Below are positions 2,604 through 49,233 of a DNA stretch of 64,000 nucleotides, piece by piece; position 1 is the first letter of the stretch, and each line of letters opens with the position of its first letter. The stretch is taken from the sequence record NC_054935.2. One strand, given 5' to 3'. The DNA is from Escherichia phage YUEEL01. The notes under the pieces were generated by a model. That model was not told the origin of the DNA. It ran no database searches and worked only from the letters and a program-made list of their open reading frames with translations. Position numbers and translations under genes: made by a program.

Positions 2604-3825
<1,222 letters not shown>

Positions 3826-3889
3826 TGGCTTTGCACCATGAAACTTGGACTATTATTAATTGGCTCGAAGAAAATTATGTGAGGTAAAT

Positions 3890-4165
3890 ATGTTTCCGAC
3901 TTACTCTAAAATCGTAGAAGTAGTGTTTAGCCAAATTATCGCTAATAATATGTTTGAAAAACTTGATAACGCAGCTGAGCTTCGAATCCACGCTCAAGTG
4001 ACTCATGTATTGAACACTTTGCTTCCAGACCAGGTGGATTCTATTGCCATTACGTTGTATCCAGGTTCCGCGCATATCATTGTTGTATTCGGTCTTGATG
4101 CTGAGCTAGTTATCAAAGGCGACATTCGCTTTGAATCTCAAACTGCGGAATTCAAAGCGATTTAA
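3890..4165 (+). CDS. hypothetical protein (91 aa)
   Basis: ORF track 3860..4165; ATG at 3890 preceded by GAGG SD chosen as start. Confidence 0.5.
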   Translation: MFPTYSKIVEVVFSQIIANNMFEKLDNAAELRIHAQVTHVLNTLLPDQVDSIAITLYPGSAHIIVVFGLDAELVIKGDIRFESQTAEFKAI

Positions 4166-7763: not shown

Positions 7764-8096
7764 ATGAAAACGATTAATCTGAACGCTGCAGTTAAAACTA
7801 AATGCTTCAATGGTAAATATGATGAAACTATGTGGTTCTTAATGGCAGTTGAAGGTGATATTATTGAAGTAGAAACAACAGAAGGTATGGGAACAGATTT
7901 CACCTTTACAATTCAAGTTCATAATTTCTTTACTGGTTGGATTTATGAATTGAATACAGTAATCGTTGGAAAAATTGAACAAAATGAATTAGGTGAATGG
8001 TATTATGTTACAGCTCGCCAACGTGCCGAACGCTTAATTGAGAAGATGAAAAAAGTTGGTAAACTTGACATGCAGCATTGGAAAGTAGTAAAATAA
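7764..8096 (+). CDS. hypothetical protein (110 aa)
   Basis: ATG ORF with AAGGAG SD and its own early promoter. Confidence 0.6.
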   Translation: MKTINLNAAVKTKCFNGKYDETMWFLMAVEGDIIEVETTEGMGTDFTFTIQVHNFFTGWIYELNTVIVGKIEQNELGEWYYVTARQRAERLIEKMKKVGKLDMQHWKVVK

Positions 8097-8570: not shown

Positions 8571-8858
8571 ATGTTTATGACTACTTATTTTGATACCCGT
8601 AAAAACTTCTGCGAAGTAGTTTTCTCAAAGGCGCCTAAAGACCTTCCTGCACATTTGCAACCTACTAGCGAATCGATTAAAAACTACGTTGATGTGGTTT
8701 GTCCTTTAGAGTTTCGTACTGTAAATGGGCGCGATACTTTAGCTATCACTAAACTCAATCGTGAAATTGACATTGACCCTTCAATTGCACGTGAAATTAA
8801 TAGTTCTGATATTAATGGCGGTAATGTTAAATCGCACGGTTTTCAGATGAGGTTTTAA
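8571..8858 (+). CDS. hypothetical protein (95 aa)
   Basis: Track ORF begins at TTG 8520; ATG at 8571 with GAGGA SD preferred; hairpin lies between previous stop and this start. Confidence 0.5.
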   Translation: MFMTTYFDTRKNFCEVVFSKAPKDLPAHLQPTSESIKNYVDVVCPLEFRTVNGRDTLAITKLNREIDIDPSIAREINSSDINGGNVKSHGFQMRF

Positions 8859-9055
8859 TGAAATTCTTTTTAGGTCAAACTGTTGAATTAAAGGGAGTTG
8901 GTATACCTGGATTAATTTCTAAGGTTCTACCTTCGTTTAAATGGAGTGGTATTCAAATAAAAGAGGCTTATATTGTTTCTTGGGTAGATGGAAATGAAGA
9001 CCTTCGTATGGGCGATGAATTATCTCCTATCTACGGATTAAAGGAATTAGTATGA
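8858..9055 (+). CDS. hypothetical protein (65 aa)
   Basis: ATG ORF, overlapping stop/start with neighbours. Confidence 0.5.
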   Translation: MKFFLGQTVELKGVGIPGLISKVLPSFKWSGIQIKEAYIVSWVDGNEDLRMGDELSPIYGLKELV

Positions 9056-9258
9056 ATATAATTAATAAGATTTTTGGAATTCAGTACATTAAGGTCACAT
9101 ATAAAGTAACAGATAAAAATCCGTATACTGATGAACACGAAGAACCGCAAGTTAAGTCTATTATATTAGAAAAAGGCAGTGACTGGCCAGTTGAATTTCG
9201 TCTACCAAACTGTGGTCATTGGGCTGATGTTGAAATTATAAGCATTGAAAATGTCTGA
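9052..9258 (+). CDS. hypothetical protein (68 aa)
   Basis: ATG ORF, 4-bp overlap with upstream gene. Confidence 0.5.
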   Translation: MNIINKIFGIQYIKVTYKVTDKNPYTDEHEEPQVKSIILEKGSDWPVEFRLPNCGHWADVEIISIENV

Positions 9259-9709
9259 GTTAGAGATTAGAAGCAATTTTAGGTGGCCATCATGCGCATT
9301 AAGTAATTTCGCCCAATGGCCTTTCGTTATGGATGGCATTCAATTTGGAGGTCTTGAAGGATTCCTCCAAGGGTGCAAGGTGAAAAATGTTGAACAACAA
9401 CGTCGTATATTTGGGTTATCCGGGCTTGCCGCCCAACAAGCTGGAAGGTCTTATGCTAGAGCTCAGGACCGTGGGACCCTCTTCTGGCTTGGAGTTCCGT
9501 TTTCAAGATACTCCCCAGCCTGGAAAGAATTATACACAAATGCGTATTTTGAAGCAGCGCTTCAAAACAGAGGCTTTCGCGATGCATTACAAGCCTCGAA
9601 AGGAAAAGTTTTGAAGCACAGCATGGCTAGTGGTCTAACAAAAGATGATACAATACTAACCGAAGCTGAATTTATTGATGTGTTAAACCTATTAAGAGAC
9701 TCTCTATGA
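9251..9709 (+). CDS. NADAR / YbiA-like (DUF1768) domain protein
   Basis: Motif ALSNFAQWPFVMDGIQF resembles the FSNFxxWP...DG core of E. coli YbiA/NADAR; ATG at 9251 (track starts TTG 9245); locally GC-rich; corresponds by position to T4 30.3. Confidence 0.7.
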   Translation: MSELEIRSNFRWPSCALSNFAQWPFVMDGIQFGGLEGFLQGCKVKNVEQQRRIFGLSGLAAQQAGRSYARAQDRGTLFWLGVPFSRYSPAWKELYTNAYFEAALQNRGFRDALQASKGKVLKHSMASGLTKDDTILTEAEFIDVLNLLRDSL

Positions 9710-10560
9710 AGCCTACTATTTTAACTGATATTGATGGAGTATGTTTAAGCTGGCAATCAGGCCTTCCTTATTTTGCTCAGAAATATAATCTTCCGTTAGA
9801 ACATATTTTAAAAATGATCCAGGATGAGAAATTTATTTCTCCTGGTAAACTATTTAATTGCGATGAAGAACTTGGCGTTAAGCTAATTGAAAAATACAAT
9901 CGTTCGGATTTTATTCGATACTTGTCTCCATATAAAGATGCCCTATGTGTAATTAACAAATTAAAAGAAGATTATAATTTTGTAGCTGTTACAGCATTGG
10001 GTGATTCTATTGACGCTCTGCTGAATCGTCAATTTAATTTGAATGCTCTTTTTCCTGGTGCCTTCTCAGAAGTACTGATGTGTGGTCATGATTCTTCAAA
10101 AGAAGAGTTGTTCAAAAAGGCAAAAGAAAAATATAACGTAATTTGTTATATTGACGATCTCGCTCACCACTGCGATCACGCAAGTGAAATATTAAATGTT
10201 CCTGTTTATTGGATGGCTCGAGGGGAACGTGACAGTATTCCAAAAACTGCACAGCGAGTTTATACATGGAATGATGTAGAGAATAAGCTTTTTCCATCGA
10301 AGGAAAATAAAGAAAGTTTTGATAGTGAAAAAGTTATAAAAGATGTAATTGAGAAGATGATTAAAAACGATTCTTTTCGTTGGAACACTACTTGGAGAAC
10401 TCCTGGATTTAATCCTTATAATCCATATCATCCATATTATACACACTCGCATCAGATGCATCCATTCCATACGTGGAGTTATATTAAGCCTGGCGACGCA
10501 GGGTATTTTAATAGACTTACTAGTGGTAGTGGTGATAATATTTTCCAAGGAGCATTCTAA
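9706..10560 (+). CDS. HAD-superfamily phosphatase-like protein with His/Tyr/Pro-rich C-terminal tail
   Basis: N-terminal ILTDIDGV = HAD motif I (DxDxV); 284 aa; C-terminal PGFNPYNPYHPYYTHSHQMHPFH segment. Confidence 0.65.
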   Translation: MKPTILTDIDGVCLSWQSGLPYFAQKYNLPLEHILKMIQDEKFISPGKLFNCDEELGVKLIEKYNRSDFIRYLSPYKDALCVINKLKEDYNFVAVTALGDSIDALLNRQFNLNALFPGAFSEVLMCGHDSSKEELFKKAKEKYNVICYIDDLAHHCDHASEILNVPVYWMARGERDSIPKTAQRVYTWNDVENKLFPSKENKESFDSEKVIKDVIEKMIKNDSFRWNTTWRTPGFNPYNPYHPYYTHSHQMHPFHTWSYIKPGDAGYFNRLTSGSGDNIFQGAF

Positions 10561-10829
10561 TGTTTGTTGTTCACACTATTTATGAAAATGAAGGTAATAC
10601 TACACGTGATTACGGTCACGTAAATCAATTTTTTAGATGCAATCCAGAATTCCGAGCTCAAAAAGACGAACGAATTTTTAAAAAATGTGTAGAGCAAGGT
10701 TTCATTTACGTCAAGCACTGGATGCAAGGAAATAAAGTTAGAACCACGTACCACAGGTCTTTGACTGAGCTTAATGATGAATTGATTTATAATAGAGCTG
10801 TAAACCAAACTCTAAAGGATGAACAATGA
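10560..10829 (+). CDS. hypothetical protein (89 aa)
   Basis: ATG ORF directly upstream of DNA ligase, overlapping stop/start. Confidence 0.55.
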   Translation: MFVVHTIYENEGNTTRDYGHVNQFFRCNPEFRAQKDERIFKKCVEQGFIYVKHWMQGNKVRTTYHRSLTELNDELIYNRAVNQTLKDEQ

Positions 10830-12289
10830 TTCTTAAAATTCTGAACGAAATAGCATCTATTGGTTCAACTAAGCAGAAGCAAGCAATTCTTGAAAAGAAT
10901 AAAGATAATGAATTGCTTAAACGAGTATATCGTCTGACTTATTCTCGTGGGTTACAGTATTATATCAAGAAATGGCCTAAACCGGGTATTGCTACCCAGA
11001 GTTTTGGAATGTTGACTCTTACCGATATGCTTGACTTCATTGAATTCACGTTAGCTACTCGGAAATTGACTGGAAATGCGGCAATTGAGGAATTAACTGG
11101 ATATATTACTGACGGTAAAAAAGATGATGTTGAAGTTTTGCGTCGGGTGATGATGCGAGACCTTGAATGCGGTGCTTCAGTATCTATTGCAAACAAAGTT
11201 TGGCCAGGTTTAATTCCTGAACAACCTCAAATGCTTGCAAGTTCTTATGATGAAAAAGGCATTAATAAGAATATCAAATTTCCAGCCTTTGCCCAGTTAA
11301 AAGCTGATGGAGCTCGGTGTTTTGCTGAAGTTAGAGGTGATGAATTAGATGATGTTCGTCTTTTATCACGAGCTGGTAATGAATATCTAGGATTAGATCT
11401 TCTTAAGGAAGAGTTAATCAAAATGACTGCAGAAGCTCGCCAGATTCATCCAGAAGGTGTGTTAATTGATGGCGAATTGGTATACCATGAGCAAGTTGAA
11501 AAGGAGCCAGAAGGCCTAGATTTTCTTTTTGATGCTTATCCTGAAATTAGTAAAGCTAAAGAATTCGCCGAAGTAGCTGAATCACGTACTGCATCTAATG
11601 GCATCGCCAATAAATCTTTAAAGGGAACCATTTCTGAAAAAGAAGCTCAATGCATGAAGTTTCAGGTCTGGGATTATGTCCCGTTGGTAGAAATATACGG
11701 TCTTCCTGCATTTCGTTTGAAATATGATGTACGTTTTTCTAAACTAGAACAAATGACATCAGGTTATGATAAAGTAATTTTAATTGAAAACCAGGTAGTA
11801 AATAACCTAGATGAAGCTAAGGTAATTTATAAAAAGTATATTGACCAAGGTCTTGAAGGTATTATTCTCAAAAATACCGATGGATTGTGGGAAAATGCTC
11901 GTTCAAAAAATCTCTATAAATTTAAAGAAGTAATTGATGTTGATTTAAAAATTGTAGGAATTTATCCTCACCGTAAAGACCCTACTAAAGCGGGTGGATT
12001 TATTCTTGAATCAGAGTGTGGAAAAATTAAGGTAAATGCTGGTTCAGGCTTAAAAGATAAAGCCGGTGTAAAATCGCATGAACTTGACCGTACTCGCATT
12101 ATGGAAAACCAAAATTATTATATTGGAAAAATTCTAGAGTGCGAATGCAACGGTTGGTTAAAATCTGATGGCCGCACTGATTACGTTAAATTATTTCTTC
12201 CGATTGTGATTCGTTTACGTGAAGATAAAACTAAAGCTAATACATTCGAGGATGTATTTGGTGATTTTCATGAGGTAACTGGTTTATGA
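10826..12289 (+). CDS. 30: ATP-dependent DNA ligase
   Basis: 487 aa MILKILNEIASIGSTKQKQAILEKNKDNELLKRVYRL... matches T4 DNA ligase; adenylation lysine context AQLKADGARC. Confidence 0.95.
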   Translation: MILKILNEIASIGSTKQKQAILEKNKDNELLKRVYRLTYSRGLQYYIKKWPKPGIATQSFGMLTLTDMLDFIEFTLATRKLTGNAAIEELTGYITDGKKDDVEVLRRVMMRDLECGASVSIANKVWPGLIPEQPQMLASSYDEKGINKNIKFPAFAQLKADGARCFAEVRGDELDDVRLLSRAGNEYLGLDLLKEELIKMTAEARQIHPEGVLIDGELVYHEQVEKEPEGLDFLFDAYPEISKAKEFAEVAESRTASNGIANKSLKGTISEKEAQCMKFQVWDYVPLVEIYGLPAFRLKYDVRFSKLEQMTSGYDKVILIENQVVNNLDEAKVIYKKYIDQGLEGIILKNTDGLWENARSKNLYKFKEVIDVDLKIVGIYPHRKDPTKAGGFILESECGKIKVNAGSGLKDKAGVKSHELDRTRIMENQNYYIGKILECECNGWLKSDGRTDYVKLFLPIVIRLREDKTKANTFEDVFGDFHEVTGL

Positions 12290-12474
12290 AAGCTTACTTA
12301 GAAACAATTGTCGTGGCTCAAAAAGAAGGTGGAGATGTTTCTACTTCTGTATCACAAGTCATTCTCGAATTTGTAGATGCATACGCTTATAATAAATTTA
12401 CAGAAACATTTGATGCCTATGAAAAAGGACCAAAGTTTGAAATATATCGTACTCTCTTACCACTAGATTACTAA
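12286..12474 (+). CDS. hypothetical protein (62 aa)
   Basis: Small ORF overlapping ligase stop, followed by hairpin terminator. Confidence 0.5.
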   Translation: MKAYLETIVVAQKEGGDVSTSVSQVILEFVDAYAYNKFTETFDAYEKGPKFEIYRTLLPLDY

Positions 12475-12492
12475 AGGCCTTCGGGCCTTTAA
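12473..12492 (+). terminator. intrinsic terminator upstream of alt late promoter
   Basis: AAAGGCC-TTCG-GGCCTTT hairpin followed by AATTTT. Confidence 0.65.
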
Positions 12493-27793: not shown

Positions 27794-29500
27794 ATGGCTT
27801 TTACAGTTGATATAACTCCTAAAACACCTACTGGAGTTATAGATCAGACTCAGCAGTTTACTGCTACACCCAGTGGTCAAACTGGAGATGGACCTATTAC
27901 ATATGCTTGGACTGTAGACGACGCTCCACAGGAAGAAACGTCAGCAACTTTTAGTTATGTACTAAAAGTACCTGCCGGTCAAAAGACTATTAAAGTAGTT
28001 GCAACCAATCAAGTTGCAGAATCTGAACCTGAAACAGCAGAAATTAGTACAACTATCACAGTTCAAAATAAGACACAAACAACTACTTTAGCTGTAACTC
28101 CTGGTAGCCCTGATGCTGGAGTGATTGGAACTCCAATTGAATTTACCGCTGCCTTAGCTTCACAGCCATCAGGTGCAAACGCTACGTATCAATGGCACGT
28201 TGACGGTTCTCCTGTAGACGAAGCAACTGACGCTACATTCAATTACACTCCTGACACAAGCGGAGTTAAAAAAATCAAGTGTGTAGCTCAAGTAACTGCG
28301 GCAGATTATGATGCACTAAGCGTTACTTCTAATGAAGTATCATTGACTGTTAATAAAAAGACGCAGACGACTACCTTGGCAGTAACTCCTGATAGTCCTC
28401 CAGCTGGAGTGATTGGAACAGCCGTTGAATTTACTGCTGCCTTAGCTTCTCAACCTGATGGGGCATCTGCTACGTATCAGTGGTATGTAGATGATTCTCA
28501 AATTGGTGAAGCGACTTCTGCTACATTTAGCTATACTCCAACTACAAGTGGAGTAAAAAGAATTAAATGCGTAGCGCAAGTAACAGCAACAGATTATGAC
28601 GCAAAAACAGTTACTTCTAATGAAGTATCATTAACAGTTAATAAGAAGACACAGACAACTACGTTAGCCGTAACTCCTGCTAATCCTGCTGCCGGAGTAA
28701 TTGGAACCCCAGTTCAATTTACTGCTGCCTTGGATTCACAGCCACCAGGAGCGTCTGCTACGTATCAGTGGTATGTTGACGGTTCTCTGGTCGATGGAGA
28801 AACTACTACTACATTTAACTATACTCCTACCACAGTTGGAGCTAAAACAGTTAAGTGTGTAGCGCAAGTAACTGCAGAAAATTACAATGAAAAGGAAGTT
28901 ACTTCTAATGAAGTATCATTGACTGTTAATAAGAAAACAATGAATCCACAGGTTACATTGACTCCTCCTTCTATTAACGTTCAGCAAGATGCTTCGGCTA
29001 CATTTACGGCTAATGTTACGGGTGCTCCAGAAGAAGCACAAATTACTTACTCATGGAAGAAAGATTCTTCTCCTGTAGAAGGGTCAACTAACGTATATAC
29101 TGTCGATACCTCATCTGTTGGAAGTCAAACTATTGAAGTTACTGCTGTCGTTACTGCAACTGATTACGATAGCAAAACTATTACAGCAGAAGGTCAAGTT
29201 CAGGTAACTGATAAAGTTGCTCCAGAACCAGAAGGTGAATTGCCTTATGTTCATCCTCTTCCACATCGTACTTCAGCTTATATCTGGTGCGGTTGGTGGG
29301 TTATGGATGAAATCCAAAAAATGACCGAAGAAGGTAAAGATTGGAAAACTGAAGATCCAGACAGTAAATACTACCTGCATCGTTACACTCTTCAGAAGAT
29401 GATGAAAGACTATCCAGAAGTTGATGTTCAAGAATCACGCAATGGATACATCATTCATAAAACTGCTTTAGAAACTGGTATCATCTATACCTATCCATAA
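27794..29500 (+). CDS. hoc: Hoc, highly immunogenic outer capsid protein (expanded Ig-domain form)
   Basis: 568 aa; five Ig-like modules, three of them near-identical 96-aa tandem units, plus C-terminal capsid-binding region (WCGWWVMDEIQ...); synteny inh-hoc-rnlB. Confidence 0.88.
   Translation: MAFTVDITPKTPTGVIDQTQQFTATPSGQTGDGPITYAWTVDDAPQEETSATFSYVLKVPAGQKTIKVVATNQVAESEPETAEISTTITVQNKTQTTTLAVTPGSPDAGVIGTPIEFTAALASQPSGANATYQWHVDGSPVDEATDATFNYTPDTSGVKKIKCVAQVTAADYDALSVTSNEVSLTVNKKTQTTTLAVTPDSPPAGVIGTAVEFTAALASQPDGASATYQWYVDDSQIGEATSATFSYTPTTSGVKRIKCVAQVTATDYDAKTVTSNEVSLTVNKKTQTTTLAVTPANPAAGVIGTPVQFTAALDSQPPGASATYQWYVDGSLVDGETTTTFNYTPTTVGAKTVKCVAQVTAENYNEKEVTSNEVSLTVNKKTMNPQVTLTPPSINVQQDASATFTANVTGAPEEAQITYSWKKDSSPVEGSTNVYTVDTSSVGSQTIEVTAVVTATDYDSKTITAEGQVQVTDKVAPEPEGELPYVHPLPHRTSAYIWCGWWVMDEIQKMTEEGKDWKTEDPDSKYYLHRYTLQKMMKDYPEVDVQESRNGYIIHKTALETGIIYTYP
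28070..28933 (+). repeat. three tandem ~288-bp repeats inside hoc (Ig-like domain units)
   Basis: Units at 28070-28357, 28358-28645, 28646-28933 each encode KTQTTTLAVTP...TSNEVSLTVNK (96 aa) with high mutual identity. Confidence 0.85.
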
Positions 29501-32491: not shown

Positions 32492-34057
32492 TTAGATACC
32501 TTTAACATATACACGGCGGAAGTAAGCGTTTTTACCAAGGCTATTCAGAATAGAAGGCATACCGCTCTGGATGCGAGAAGCCGGAGCCTGAGCAGCGGAT
32601 TCTGCAAATGGGTTGATACCGATACCGTAACGAGTTTTGAATCCCATTACCGGTTGGAAGTTCTTCGGATCAGAACCACGCAGCGGAGTCAGAGCTACAT
32701 ATGGAGCATAGTAAATACCAGCATCCATTTCGTTCGGACCTTTATAACCTACGGTGAAATAATCCTGTTTAGCATACTGGTCGATATATACACGGTATTT
32801 ACCACCCAGAACACCAGCAAATACTGACTTGGTAGTATCAGTGTTAAAGCCAGTAGCCAGACCTTGTGCAGCATAAGAAATGCCGGTATCAACTGAAGCC
32901 AGAACGTTAACTACGTTACGGGAAGCGATAATGAAGTTACCTTCGCCGCGACCAGTCTGACGAGCAATTTCAACTGCTTCTTTGTCAATCTGGAACAACA
33001 GAGCTTTAAAGGATTCACCTGCCCAGCGAGCACCACGAATATCGATTGGGTCCTGGAAGTCAAATACACCAGCTTTAGAACCCGGAGTCAGGGTCATACC
33101 AGATTTACCAACCTGAGCGGAGTAGTTAATCCAATCAACAACTTCGCGGTTGATTTCCAGCATAATTTCGGTAGCCAGAATACCAGACAGTTCAGCATCA
33201 GCATCCATACCGTGAACAGCGCGAAGGTCTTGTGCTAATTCAATAGAGTAAGCAGCTTTCAGCTGACGAGATTTAGCTTCGATAACTTGCTTATCGATAC
33301 GGAAGCCCATTTCATTCCATGGGTTATCGGTAGAACCGTTAAAACCTTCCTGAAGTTCAGCGATAGAAGTAGCCATACCTTCAGCGATTTCTACCAGTAC
33401 ACCAGCTTCCATTTGTTTCTTAATTTCAGCATCTAATTTGTCTGCGTCAGATGCGCCTGAATCAATTTGTTTAACTTCTGTAGCTTGCAGATATACTGTA
33501 CCAGTTTCCTGGAAGAAGTGAGTGTAAATAGTTCCGACTTCAAGAGTATCACTTGCTTTCAAAGCAGCGAATTTCTTAGCAGCACCCTGACCAGAGAACA
33601 TTGCATCTGGACCATACATTGGGTGGAATGCTTCTTTAGCACCGGAAGCGATTGGGTCTTTACCATATACTGCGCGCAGTGCGAATACCTGGCCAGTCGG
33701 GCTGTTCATTGGCTGAACACCACAAATATCGAAAGCAATCAGGTTAGGAATAGCACGACGTACCATACCCATAACAGCTGGGCCAATCTGAGTTACTGCT
33801 CCAGAAGTCTGACCTGCAGCGATGTTGGTAGCATTGTAACCGTGGTCACCACCGATTTCAGCTTCTGTTAAGAAAGAACCGAATGCCTGAGCAATTTTTT
33901 CGTCTTTATATTCCGGAGCTGTCTGGAAATCTTTTTCCTGGTTTTCAAAGATTTTAGCGATAATCGCTTGTTTGCTATTAGCAATTTCCGGTAAACCTTC
34001 ACCTTCCAGTAATGGCTTCCATTTGTTCAAAAGTTCAGCTTTAGTTTTGATAGTCAT
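32492..34057 (-). CDS. 23: major capsid protein gp23
   Basis: 521 aa MTIKTKAELLNKWKPLLEGEGLPEIANSKQAIIAKIFENQEKDF... matches T4 gp23; strong terminator downstream. Confidence 0.96.
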   Translation of the reverse strand: MTIKTKAELLNKWKPLLEGEGLPEIANSKQAIIAKIFENQEKDFQTAPEYKDEKIAQAFGSFLTEAEIGGDHGYNATNIAAGQTSGAVTQIGPAVMGMVRRAIPNLIAFDICGVQPMNSPTGQVFALRAVYGKDPIASGAKEAFHPMYGPDAMFSGQGAAKKFAALKASDTLEVGTIYTHFFQETGTVYLQATEVKQIDSGASDADKLDAEIKKQMEAGVLVEIAEGMATSIAELQEGFNGSTDNPWNEMGFRIDKQVIEAKSRQLKAAYSIELAQDLRAVHGMDADAELSGILATEIMLEINREVVDWINYSAQVGKSGMTLTPGSKAGVFDFQDPIDIRGARWAGESFKALLFQIDKEAVEIARQTGRGEGNFIIASRNVVNVLASVDTGISYAAQGLATGFNTDTTKSVFAGVLGGKYRVYIDQYAKQDYFTVGYKGPNEMDAGIYYAPYVALTPLRGSDPKNFQPVMGFKTRYGIGINPFAESAAQAPASRIQSGMPSILNSLGKNAYFRRVYVKGI

Positions 34058-34912: not shown

Positions 34913-34920
34913 TATTTATA
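34913..34920 (-). promoter_or_regulatory. late promoter TATAAATA for gene 22
   Basis: Reverse-complement TATAAATA overlapping gp21 stop, 28 nt upstream of gp22 ATG. Confidence 0.65.
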
Positions 34921-35554
34921 ACGCTTTTTTCATGGCCTCTGCGAGAGCCATATAGGCGTCATCGGCACTTGTATCGGCTTCCGCCGTCTGTGATTCGGTA
35001 ATTTCCTTAGGAGTTACCCATGCATCTGGAGCACTTGGACCCCATACTGCATCAACACCTACAGTTAATTTGAATCCTTCGTTTACGATACGATAACCTT
35101 TATTTGTGTCAGTCAATGAACCTAATCCACGAGAAGAAACTCCTGGAATCCATCCGGCACGAATATTAGCTGCTAATTTATCTCCAGGACCGTGGTCACC
35201 TTCAATAACACGAGCTCGTCCGTATACGTCATTTCCTTTCCACCACATATCTTCTATAATGATAGCGGCTTGCATCGGGTCAACATTAGCGCGTGGAGGA
35301 TGATTTAATTCTCCGAGAGCTTGTTTAGTTAAAACTTGCTCATTAATATAGTCTTTTACCGCTTTTTCTAATATACGTTTTGGATAAAGACGTTTATTTC
35401 TATTGACGACTTCCGCTTGCATGAATATTCCTTCGATGTATAAACCCGGTTTTAAACCTAAGTCTTTTCCATCATGAGATTCAAGCATTGGTACGCCATC
35501 AATAATTTCGCCAGGTTGACCCCAAGTTTCAATTAGTAATTGGGGTTCATTCAT
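34916..35554 (-). CDS. 21: prohead protease gp21
   Basis: 212 aa, synteny and length as T4 gp21. Confidence 0.92.
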   Translation of the reverse strand: MNEPQLLIETWGQPGEIIDGVPMLESHDGKDLGLKPGLYIEGIFMQAEVVNRNKRLYPKRILEKAVKDYINEQVLTKQALGELNHPPRANVDPMQAAIIIEDMWWKGNDVYGRARVIEGDHGPGDKLAANIRAGWIPGVSSRGLGSLTDTNKGYRIVNEGFKLTVGVDAVWGPSAPDAWVTPKEITESQTAEADTSADDAYMALAEAMKKAL

Positions 35555-47682: not shown

Positions 47683-49233
47683 TTAGTAATGAACTTTAAT
47701 AATATAGTTTAATGATATATTCCATGGTCTAGTTTCATAACCAATTAATCCTTCACGATTAAGTGTACCAAGGGCATCTCTCGGTCCGCCTAATTCAAAT
47801 CCATCATTAGTGAAGTATGAAGCATTATCCCAGTCGGCATATTTTCTAGTTCCAAGATATCCTTGATAAACAGACGCGCCAAATGGGCCTTCACTTCTGT
47901 TATATTCCCCCCAACCACCGGCGTGTTTATGGTATGACATTTGTTGTGCTTGAACACCACCAACATGCATTCCGTCACATCCTACGCCAAGTCTATCCTT
48001 TCCATAACCATCTTGTCCTCGTTGATTTAAAATATGACCGCCTGTGCCAGCTCCTCTGACGAAAAGACCCCGCATATCAGGAACGCCAGGATTATTCCAA
48101 TCGCCACCAAATCTTGTTCCAACTACGTTTCTATAATCAGGAAATTGGTCACCTGACACGGTTCCACCATGACACATAATCCAACCTGGAGGTGCTGAAT
48201 CACCCGCAAACATCATAATAGTTCCAACCGGAACTCGTTCGGACGCATATCTTTCAGTGGCAACAGGTTGATCGCCATTTTTCCACATTCCACCGCGTGA
48301 CCAAATTCCATTTGCTGTAAGATGGTCTAAATTTAAAGAACCATTAATAGTTTGTCCACCACGAGTATTAATTACATCTGCGTTCCATGCTAATGCTCCA
48401 GAGCTATCACCTTCAGGGGCAATACCGGCTTGCGTCGTTAATTTAACTACTCCACGCATAGAACCGGTAGCTCCTCGACCATTTAGTGTTTCACCTGTTA
48501 CTGCAACACCACCCAAATTATTATTAATTTCAGTCTGCGTTCCTAGGCGTATAACACCCTTATATTCATGTGTTGCAACAGAATTCATAAAGGTATACGG
48601 GGAAATTGCATATCCTTCGCGGAGAGTTCCTTGACGAATTTGTGCAACAGTAGATAATTGAACTACTCCTCTCACCGATTCTGTTGCAGTGTCTTCTGAA
48701 GGAGCTATTTGCGAAATTAATTTTATTGCAAGTTTTTGGGTTTTTAGCGGAGTCATCGCAGTAGTATCATCAACTCCAGCCAAAGCTGCAGGTGTAGATG
48801 ATATTTTAATAACCCCGTTTGATGACTCAGACGAATATCTATTTTTGAACACATCGTCAGTGTGGTATTTCAGTTTTTGTGGTGTTATTGATGAATTATT
48901 ATCTGAGCCTTTTAATGTTTCTTCATTTGTTGAATAACGCGTTAAACCATATTTAGTTTCAGTAGCATTTGGATACAATAATCTTGTTGCTAATGTAGCT
49001 GGTGTAACGATTTTAGAATTATTAGTTCCATCTAAAACCTCTTGCTCTGACGCAATCATTGCTATTCCTTTAACTTCCATAGTTGCATCAGGAATACCAT
49101 TTACGCCGATATTACTTATTTTTGATAATGCAGACTGTACTGTCGTAACAGTGCCAGGAAAATTCGATCCAGTAGGATCGAATTTAACATATTTTGATTC
49201 ATTTGATACGTGCTGATATGTATTGTTACTCAT
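47683..49233 (-). CDS. 12: short tail fibre gp12
   Basis: 516 aa [27 protein letters not shown]... matches T4 gp12 N-terminus. Confidence 0.9.

Follow-up and report, generated by a model that had tools for sequence, protein, structure and literature searches.

A T4 gene 30.3 (adfN) ortholog in Escherichia phage YUEEL01, very probably encoding a phage-clade NADAR that acts on ADP-ribosylated guanine

What does a small, GC-rich gene in the packed gene run that leads up to the DNA ligase gene do for Escherichia phage YUEEL01? The window analysed here, by which we mean the whole 64,000-nucleotide stretch from sequence record NC_054935.2, contains such a gene at 9251-9709. A sequence-only reading had seen a YbiA/NADAR-type core in its product, and had proposed an enzyme that reverses the guanine ADP-ribosylation made by DarT-type toxins. 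We consider it very likely (probability about 0.93) that the gene is the ortholog of T4 gene 30.3, adfN (anti-DarT factor NADAR), with a role as a DNA ADP-ribosyl-guanine glycohydrolase. The gene and its upstream neighbour are:

9251-9709, + strand: adfN (T4 gene 30.3), encoding an intact 152-aa phage-clade NADAR that keeps the C-terminal helix (which the RB69 frameshift allele lacks)
9052-9258, + strand: gene 30.4, 68 aa, listed here without a function; stop codon overlapping the adfN start (ATGTCTGA)

The open reading frame starts with an ATG at 9251, and its stop codon ends at 9709. An in-frame TTG lies two codons upstream, at 9245, while the T4 annotation takes the ATG. Escherichia phages 107, ES19 and ES21 match the surrounding region (8800-10900) at 100% identity, and at least 80% of it is covered by 491 phage records; the window belongs to a Tequatrovirus. 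The genes are ordered alike in the T4 reference genome (AF158101), where they lie on the opposite strand: rIII, 30.9 through 30.4, 30.3 (with a nested 30.3'), 30.2, 30.1, gene 30 (DNA ligase), alt.1 and alt. The product of 9251-9709 and T4 gp30.3 are equal in length and identical at 149/152 positions (98%), and the three substitutions (L104 for I, R107 for K and M125 for I) are all conservative. M125 is two residues from H123, at a position where both M and I are common in the family. The two proteins also share the residues E36, K43 and H123 and the C-terminal helix, and their genes occupy the same place, flanked by 30.4 and 30.2 and with the ligase gene further downstream. The Pfam model PF08010 (Phage_30_3) matches the product at E = 8.4e-70 over 138/138 model positions.

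A family profile built from 39 diverse homologs aligns residues 14-68 of the adfN product with E. coli YbiA (PDB 2b3w) over 55 residues at E = 0.003, setting LSNFA..pF..DG....EGFlQ..K against FSNFAAWPIKVDGKTWPTSEHYFQAQKF. This match covers the SNF...DG...E..Q..K stretch that the sequence-only reading had quoted for its YbiA/NADAR core, and by this alignment the resemblance is genuine but remote. The same reading had named a profile match to NADAR/DUF1768 as a check; the Pfam model PF08719 gave no match to the product at E ≤ 1, and membership was set instead by the family profile, the fold and the literature. A homolog at 38% identity (P0072) carries both PF08010 and PF08719. A single-sequence search of PDB sequences returned only a chance match (3rjz, E = 0.36), and NCBIfam has no family for gp30.3.

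The predicted structure agrees with this assignment. The AF2 model (pLDDT 92.4, pTM 0.88) has the NADAR fold, a helical core between two small sheets, and includes a C-terminal helix at residues 138-151. We located the expected active-site residues and examined their conservation, both in the 39-homolog alignment and in a second set of 165 homologous loci (85 viral and 80 genome-derived):

9302-9310, + strand: S18-N19-F20, the 'SNF' active-site motif, aligning with FSNF of YbiA; invariant in the 39-homolog alignment, with S and N in 163-165 of the 165 loci
9356-9358, + strand: E36 (GAA), catalytic Glu; invariant in the alignment and present in 165/165 loci
9377-9379, + strand: K43 (AAG), catalytic and ADP-ribose-binding Lys; at least 90% in the alignment and present in 164/165 loci
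9617-9619, + strand: H123 (CAC), last-strand His; invariant in the alignment and present in 164/165 loci, the remaining locus being unaligned there

In PnNADAR, the catalytic Glu and the Lys that touches ADP-ribose are E43 and K50. Mutating the corresponding residues of AdfN-T4 leads to a loss of activity in the case of E36A and impairs it in the case of K43A (PMC11825919). H123 lies within the last predicted strand (120-123), where a His defines the phage/gp30.3 clade of NADARs, as opposed to the Glu of the YbiA type and the Asp of the DarG1 type (PMC11543638, PMC11125620).

These features separate the phage protein from the better-known NADARs. DarG1 (BC4488 subfamily, e.g. the Geobacter lovleyi NADAR, PDB 8bat) has an Asp in the last strand where the phage protein has a His, and a basic N-terminal extension, whereas the YUEEL01 protein consists of the core only, at 152 aa. 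DarG1 also adjoins darT1, whereas adfN is flanked by 30.4 and 30.2 and by no DarT gene. Together, His123, the core-only length and the lack of a neighbouring darT1 rule out membership of the DarG1/BC4488 subfamily. E. coli YbiA (PDB 2b3w) and PnNADAR (PDB 8bau) share 19-21% identity with the adfN product and have a Glu at the position of His123, which rules out membership of the YbiA subfamily. YbiA-type enzymes additionally remove cytidine-ADPr, while phage NADAR is absent from the row for that activity in a 2026 summary table (PMC12945103). YbiA itself has a housekeeping role, in the metabolism of riboflavin intermediates and in swarming. AdfN-Bas32 and AdfN-Bas60, from T5-like and Vequintavirinae phages, are, like AdfN-T4, phage-borne orphan NADARs that neutralise DarTG1; they belong to other, independently acquired NADAR clades and need no extra phage factor, whereas the T4 type does (PMC11825919).

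The function of the T4 ortholog has been studied in some depth. Johannesman et al. (Nat Commun 2025) traced the ability of T-even phages to resist DarTG1 to gene 30.3, which they renamed adfN (PMC11825919). [quoted passage not shown] The RB69 allele is frameshifted and lacks its last 15 residues; this phage is DarTG1-sensitive, and is rescued by ectopic AdfN-T4 (PMC11825919). Purified AdfN strips ADP-ribose from DarT1-modified DNA; AdfN-T4 is specific for guanine adducts, not thymine adducts, and does not counter the thymine-modifying DarTG2 (PMC11825919). In vitro hydrolysis of G-ADPr by the T4 phage NADAR has also been reported elsewhere (PMC11125620, PMC12945103), together with the observation that the protein alone is not protective in vivo (PMC11125620). 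Unlike the antitoxin DarG1, AdfN-T4 does not rescue uninfected E. coli from DarT1 toxicity (PMC11825919, PMC11125620), and it helps T5 and Bas25 only weakly (PMC11825919). For these two reasons, a further T-even factor has been postulated for full AdfN-T4 activity (PMC11825919), and the failure in uninfected cells means that a picture in which the enzyme alone is enough is incomplete.

Transferred to YUEEL01, these results would give the following sequence of events. In an infected host carrying the DarTG1 toxin-antitoxin system, DarT1 would use NAD+ to ADP-ribosylate guanine in the phage DNA, thereby blocking phage replication. AdfN, as a minimal NADAR-fold glycohydrolase (a helical core only, lacking DarG1's N-terminal extension), would bind the ADP-ribosyl-guanine adduct, with E36 and K43 predicted to contact the ADP-ribose and H123 placed where other NADAR clades have a catalytic Glu or Asp. 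Hydrolysis of the N-glycosidic bond between ribose and guanine would then free ADP-ribose and restore the base, allowing replication to proceed. The gene lies in a dense series of small genes, apparently coupled in translation, that precedes the DNA ligase gene, and it is presumably expressed early.

With 98% identity to T4 gp30.3, we infer with high confidence that the YUEEL01 copy would act in the same way; the same function is assigned to this allele because it is full-length and its C-terminal helix is intact. The proposal that the gene encodes an anti-defence NADAR reversing DarT-type guanine ADP-ribosylation is supported by fold, catalytic residues and orthology, and by experiments on the T4 protein (PMC11825919, PMC11125620, PMC12945103). 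The anti-DarT1 role itself is not new. The biology of AdfN, in which a lytic phage uses an orphan enzyme resembling an antitoxin to erase the DNA modification made by a defence system, was published for the T4 ortholog in 2023-2025, and the window adds one more intact allele.

The main physiological substrate could also be something other than DarT1-modified DNA, such as ADP-ribosylated RNA, the adducts of other guanine-specific ADP-ribosyltransferases or the riboflavin-pathway intermediates handled by YbiA. The T4 phage NADAR does remove G-ADPr from RNA in vitro (PMC12945103), riboflavin intermediates are targets of YbiA-type NADARs (PMC11543638), and T4 encodes ADP-ribosyltransferases of its own, with alt lying about 2.8 kb downstream of adfN in the same gene run. 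However, the DarTG1 phenotype depends on adfN in T4 and T2 genetics (PMC11825919), and the Glu that defines the YbiA type is a His in the adfN product. Any extra substrates would also complement the anti-DarT1 role instead of displacing it, and we find it unlikely that one of them is the principal target. DarT1-modified DNA remains our preferred substrate.

Directly downstream of adfN lies the gene that had been described as HAD phosphatase-like, with the suggestion that the two form an anti-defence or nucleotide-salvage module:

9706-10560, + strand: gene 30.2, HAD-superfamily hydrolase; the predicted domain spans roughly residues 1-200, bears the greatest likeness to 5'(3')-deoxyribonucleotidases, and is followed by a disordered, non-conserved C-terminal tail

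The first part of this description is correct. Across gp30.2 homologs, D8-x-D10-G11, K132 and D150-D151 are invariant and T96 is conserved at 90% or more, so that all four HAD motifs are present. The AF2 model exceeds pLDDT 90 for residues 1-190 and falls below 50 for residues 241-284. Foldseek matches the model to many HAD enzymes at E-values of 3.6e-8 to 1e-5, with values of about 1e-7 to 1e-8 for a set that includes 2jao, 2i7d and 3bwv. These three 5'(3')-deoxyribonucleotidases have the best target-length-normalised TM-scores. Matches to Pfam and NCBIfam are sub-threshold only. By these models, gp30.2 is a real HAD-fold hydrolase.

Whether gp30.2 works together with the NADAR is another matter. 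In a two-gene module, the pair would serve nucleotide or ADP-ribose salvage, or gp30.2 would supply the T-even protein that AdfN-T4 requires according to the literature (PMC11825919). The adfN stop overlaps the 30.2 start (ATGA), and the genes are adjacent in all T-even-like lineages examined, including those with homologs at 59-69% identity, although one locus (L085) has an extra small gene between them. The HAD motifs and nucleotidase-like fold of gp30.2 would also suit such a role. Each gene is found in about 1450-1500 phage genomes, with near-identical host distributions, but any two near-core Straboviridae genes would be expected to be distributed together in this way. Among 82 viral gp30.3-type loci, a 30.2 homolog lies within 4 kb of the NADAR gene in only 21, all of them T4-like, and about 60 have none within that distance. 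Where the spacing varies, 30.2 stays with the ligase gene rather than with the NADAR gene, and in Klebsiella phage KPN6 the homologs of adfN and 30.2 are about 106 kb apart. The neighbourhoods of these 82 loci thus reject a conserved NADAR-HAD module as a general rule, leaving adjacency as a feature of T4-like synteny. The NADAR reaction also frees ADP-ribose by itself and needs no phosphatase, and we found no support for a nucleotide-salvage role. We therefore regard a functional module as most unlikely, and rate just as low the idea that gp30.2 is the missing cofactor of AdfN-T4, in which case 30.3-30.2 would be a counter-defence cassette of two components; in a weaker variant of this idea, the cofactor would be the product of the nested 30.3'.

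The GC richness of the gene had been noted by eye, and it is confirmed by windowed GC and codon usage. GC content is 46.6% at 9280-9620 and 46.8% at 9300-9600, against 35.8% for the whole window; the latter segment has a z-score of about 2.95 and falls in the top 0.6% of 300-bp windows. A 100-bp stretch from 9420 reaches 58%, the maximum of the entire 64 kb. Among the 60 long ORFs, adfN ranks second in GC and first in GC3 (0.353 vs a mean of 0.241, z = 2.8), with only the major capsid gene 23 having a comparable GC3 in the window. Its product ranks fourth of 60 in richness in G, A, R and P, but amino-acid composition alone was rejected as the cause of the excess, since GC3 is also the highest of the 60 ORFs. 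Dual coding with 30.3' was likewise rejected, as GC3 is 0.355 both inside and outside the overlap.

The sequence-only reading had attributed the GC excess to horizontal acquisition from a host. That adfN is an outlier in both GC and GC3 is in keeping with such a transfer, as is the published phylogeny, in which the AdfN-T4 clade is nearest to bacterial DarT1-associated NADARs and co-option from a DarG1-like NADAR was proposed as its ancient origin (PMC11825919). However, the gene is found, in conserved synteny, throughout Tevenvirinae and in more distant Straboviridae, so its acquisition must be old. The excess also depends on the phage group. In Tequatrovirus loci (flanks of ~36% GC and GC3 ~0.24), adfN exceeds its flanks by 0.06-0.08 in GC and by 0.08-0.12 in GC3, whereas in the T-even group at 84-86% identity, with flanks of ~40% GC, its GC (0.41-0.42) and GC3 (0.34-0.37) equal those of the flanks and the excess is gone. 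Across 63 distant phages, with genome GC values between 24% and 67%, the GC of the gene follows that of the genome, and the mean excess is just 0.017.

Comparison with possible donors also speaks against a recent host origin. E. coli-like GC3 values lie at about 0.55, and the 0.35 of adfN is far below them. The best bacterial or archaeal relatives among the 80 listed loci are sequences from MAGs at 33-43% identity, mostly on gut or environmental contigs, and no enterobacterial homolog is among these 80. We therefore find no support for a recent transfer from a bacterial host and hold it to be very unlikely. Between T-even groups, the pS of adfN is about 0.55, while that of 30.6, 30.5, 30.4, 30.2, 30.1 and the ligase gene is 0.63-0.79, which is essentially saturated. 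This low synonymous divergence, together with the donor-like composition, suggests either that T-even phages differing in GC content have exchanged the gene or that it has ameliorated unusually slowly; both would fit better than host transfer. The GC and GC3 excess of adfN would then point to exchange between T-even phages rather than to recent capture from a host.

The sequence-only reading had also noticed a second ORF embedded in another frame of adfN, and left it as either a GC artefact or a real nested gene. The ORF does exist, and it corresponds to an annotated T4 feature:

9387-9614, + strand: 30.3', nested ORF in the +1 frame of adfN, 75 aa, Pfam DUF2883, annotated in T4 as an internal translation product

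If 30.3' were a genuine overlapping gene, it would be translated from an internal start. Besides its annotation in the T4 reference genome, a Shine-Dalgarno-like string (AAGGTGA) precedes its ATG at a distance of 4 nt, and AAG GTG is found there in 14/14 close orthologs. However, this string is merely the codons of the catalytic K43 (AAG) and of V44 (GTG). The +1 frame is open in 13 of the 14 close orthologs, the exception (L013) having an internal stop. The start is less well kept: ATG is replaced by ACG in one ortholog (L004), and is shifted or GTG in others.

Much of the open length is predicted by the AdfN protein sequence alone. When the synonymous codons of adfN were permuted, 13-18% of trials gave an open stretch of 76 codons or more in the +1 frame (P = 0.13-0.18). 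The resulting view of a chance ORF, drawn from a single sequence, was challenged by lineages at 59-69% AdfN identity, in which the +1 open frames are longer (99-126 codons). It was nevertheless kept, since the null expectations in those lineages are also long: permutation means for the +1 frame are 54-96 codons overall and 82-96 codons in the 59-69% lineages, and per-lineage P-values run from 0.05 to 0.53, with no lineage individually significant. Fisher combination over five lineages gives a marginal excess with own-codon permutation (P = 0.036), but not with local genome codon usage (P = 0.10). In distant homologs, the same permutation test of the +1 frame shows no signal (median P about 0.79).

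Selection on the nested frame was assessed from substitution patterns, in which third codon positions of adfN are second positions of 30.3'. dN/dS is 0.995 in the 30.3' frame, against 0.10-0.15 in adfN. There is no extra constraint on adfN third positions within the overlap (variability 0.635 inside and 0.641 outside), and synonymous differences between groups are similar inside and outside it (0.340 vs 0.361, P = 0.76). Between T-even groups, the 30.3' product is 59% identical, whereas AdfN is 83% identical over the same nucleotides. It is thus unlikely that 30.3' is a real gene. Although a marginal signal remains, the ORF is probably a by-product that arises from the sequence coding for AdfN and has no function. 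This provides quantitative evidence that a long-annotated ORF with its own Pfam family (DUF2883) behaves as a by-product rather than as a selected gene.

Finally, we considered how adfN may be transcribed and translated. The overlap between the 30.4 stop and the adfN start (ATGTCTGA) suggests translational coupling, and a chain of ATGA/TAATG overlaps runs on from the adfN-30.2 junction through 30.1, the ligase gene and alt.1. Two candidate signals flank this chain:

8065-8094, + strand: candidate early sigma-70-like promoter upstream of 30.7, the best match in the region (11/12), by consensus match only
12472-12491, + strand: terminator-like hairpin directly 3' of alt.1

The total number of sigma-70-like sites in the promoter scan did not exceed the expectation from shuffled sequence, and we only tentatively propose the site at 8065-8094 as an early promoter for the chain from 30.7 to alt.1, including adfN. 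The hairpin is likely to mark the end of the transcription unit. These consensus matches suggest that 30.7 to alt.1 form one compact transcription unit. An Rfam scan of the whole window found no RNA family.

We also observed that many public T4-like genome records place the start of adfN incorrectly, such that the active site is deleted. These mis-starts are relevant for automated annotation of anti-defence genes.

The sequence-only reading had taken the GC-richness of adfN, the T4 gene 30.3 ortholog, to suggest acquisition from a host. The window contains five other GC-rich genes, however:

2917-3825, (+), polynucleotide kinase/phosphatase (PseT-like)
27794-29500, (+), Hoc-like protein carrying PKD and Ig domains
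32492-34057, (-), gp23 major capsid protein
34916-35554, (-), gp21-type prohead protease
47683-49233, (-), gp12 short tail fibre

GC peaks in the YUEEL01 genome do not by themselves mark foreign DNA. Among them, only gp23 has a GC3 (0.345) near that of adfN. A scan of window 1-64000 against Rfam returned no family at the gathering threshold.

The divergence of adfN hints instead at mosaic recombination among T-even phages, as synonymous divergence (pS) is both low and unevenly distributed along the gene. Between Tequatrovirus and the T-even group with approximately 40% GC (window 9251-9709 vs loci L008-L014), adfN has a pS of ~0.55, well below the 0.63-0.79 of 30.6, 30.5, 30.4, 30.2, 30.1 and ligase. 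Within the gene, synonymous differences are 0.22-0.38 at codons 1-105 and 0.48-0.55 at codons 106-152. Gene 30.7 also shows low synonymous divergence.

We also followed the +1 frame of adfN, which holds the nested ORF 30.3', into three T4-like metagenome contigs of intermediate AdfN identity (59-69%). The frame is open for 126 (L083), 99 (L085) and 108 (L087) codons, exceeding its length in T4, and each contig has an ATG or GTG close to the same start position. With permutation P values of 0.05-0.37, these long open frames are mostly expected from the protein sequence, and only a marginal residual signal is left when five lineages are combined (P = 0.036 with own-codon permutation, or 0.10 with local genome codon usage).

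In the identical record of Escherichia phage 107 (OQ599309), adfN is annotated from an internal GTG at window position 9380 (9380-9709, or 3581-3910 of locus L001). This start yields a 109-aa product without S18-N19-F20, E36 and K43, and the phage SV76 deposit (P0007, a cluster of 16 sequences) has the same shortened form. The 109-aa form is probably a gene-caller artefact, since no clear Shine-Dalgarno sequence precedes the true ATG, which is instead coupled to the stop codon of 30.4.

Downstream, residues ~225-284 of the HAD-fold hydrolase gp30.2 (window 10378-10560) form a predicted disordered tail (pLDDT < 50) with a high content of His, Pro, Tyr and Asn residues (NPYNPYHPYYTHSHQMHPFHTW). 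The tail is not conserved; relatives align only over residues ~1-195 and carry tails of differing length in its place.

His-type NADARs (the gp30.3 clade) with the full catalytic set also occur on ~230 bacterial and archaeal genome contigs, with 33-43% identity among the matches listed (L088-L167). These contigs are assigned to MAGs of gut Clostridia, Akkermansia, Bacteroidales, CPR bacteria and DPANN archaea; the NADAR genes on them may belong to prophages, to phage contigs binned in error or to the cellular genomes themselves.

The methods of a 2024 Toxins paper describe an 'E. coli T4 phage NADAR (gp30.3)' construct of residues 1-208 (PMC11125620), whereas T4 gp30.3 and the window ORF are both 152 aa long. 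The construct either includes added sequence or originates from a longer homolog; forms of 201 aa are known (for example P0027 and P0028).
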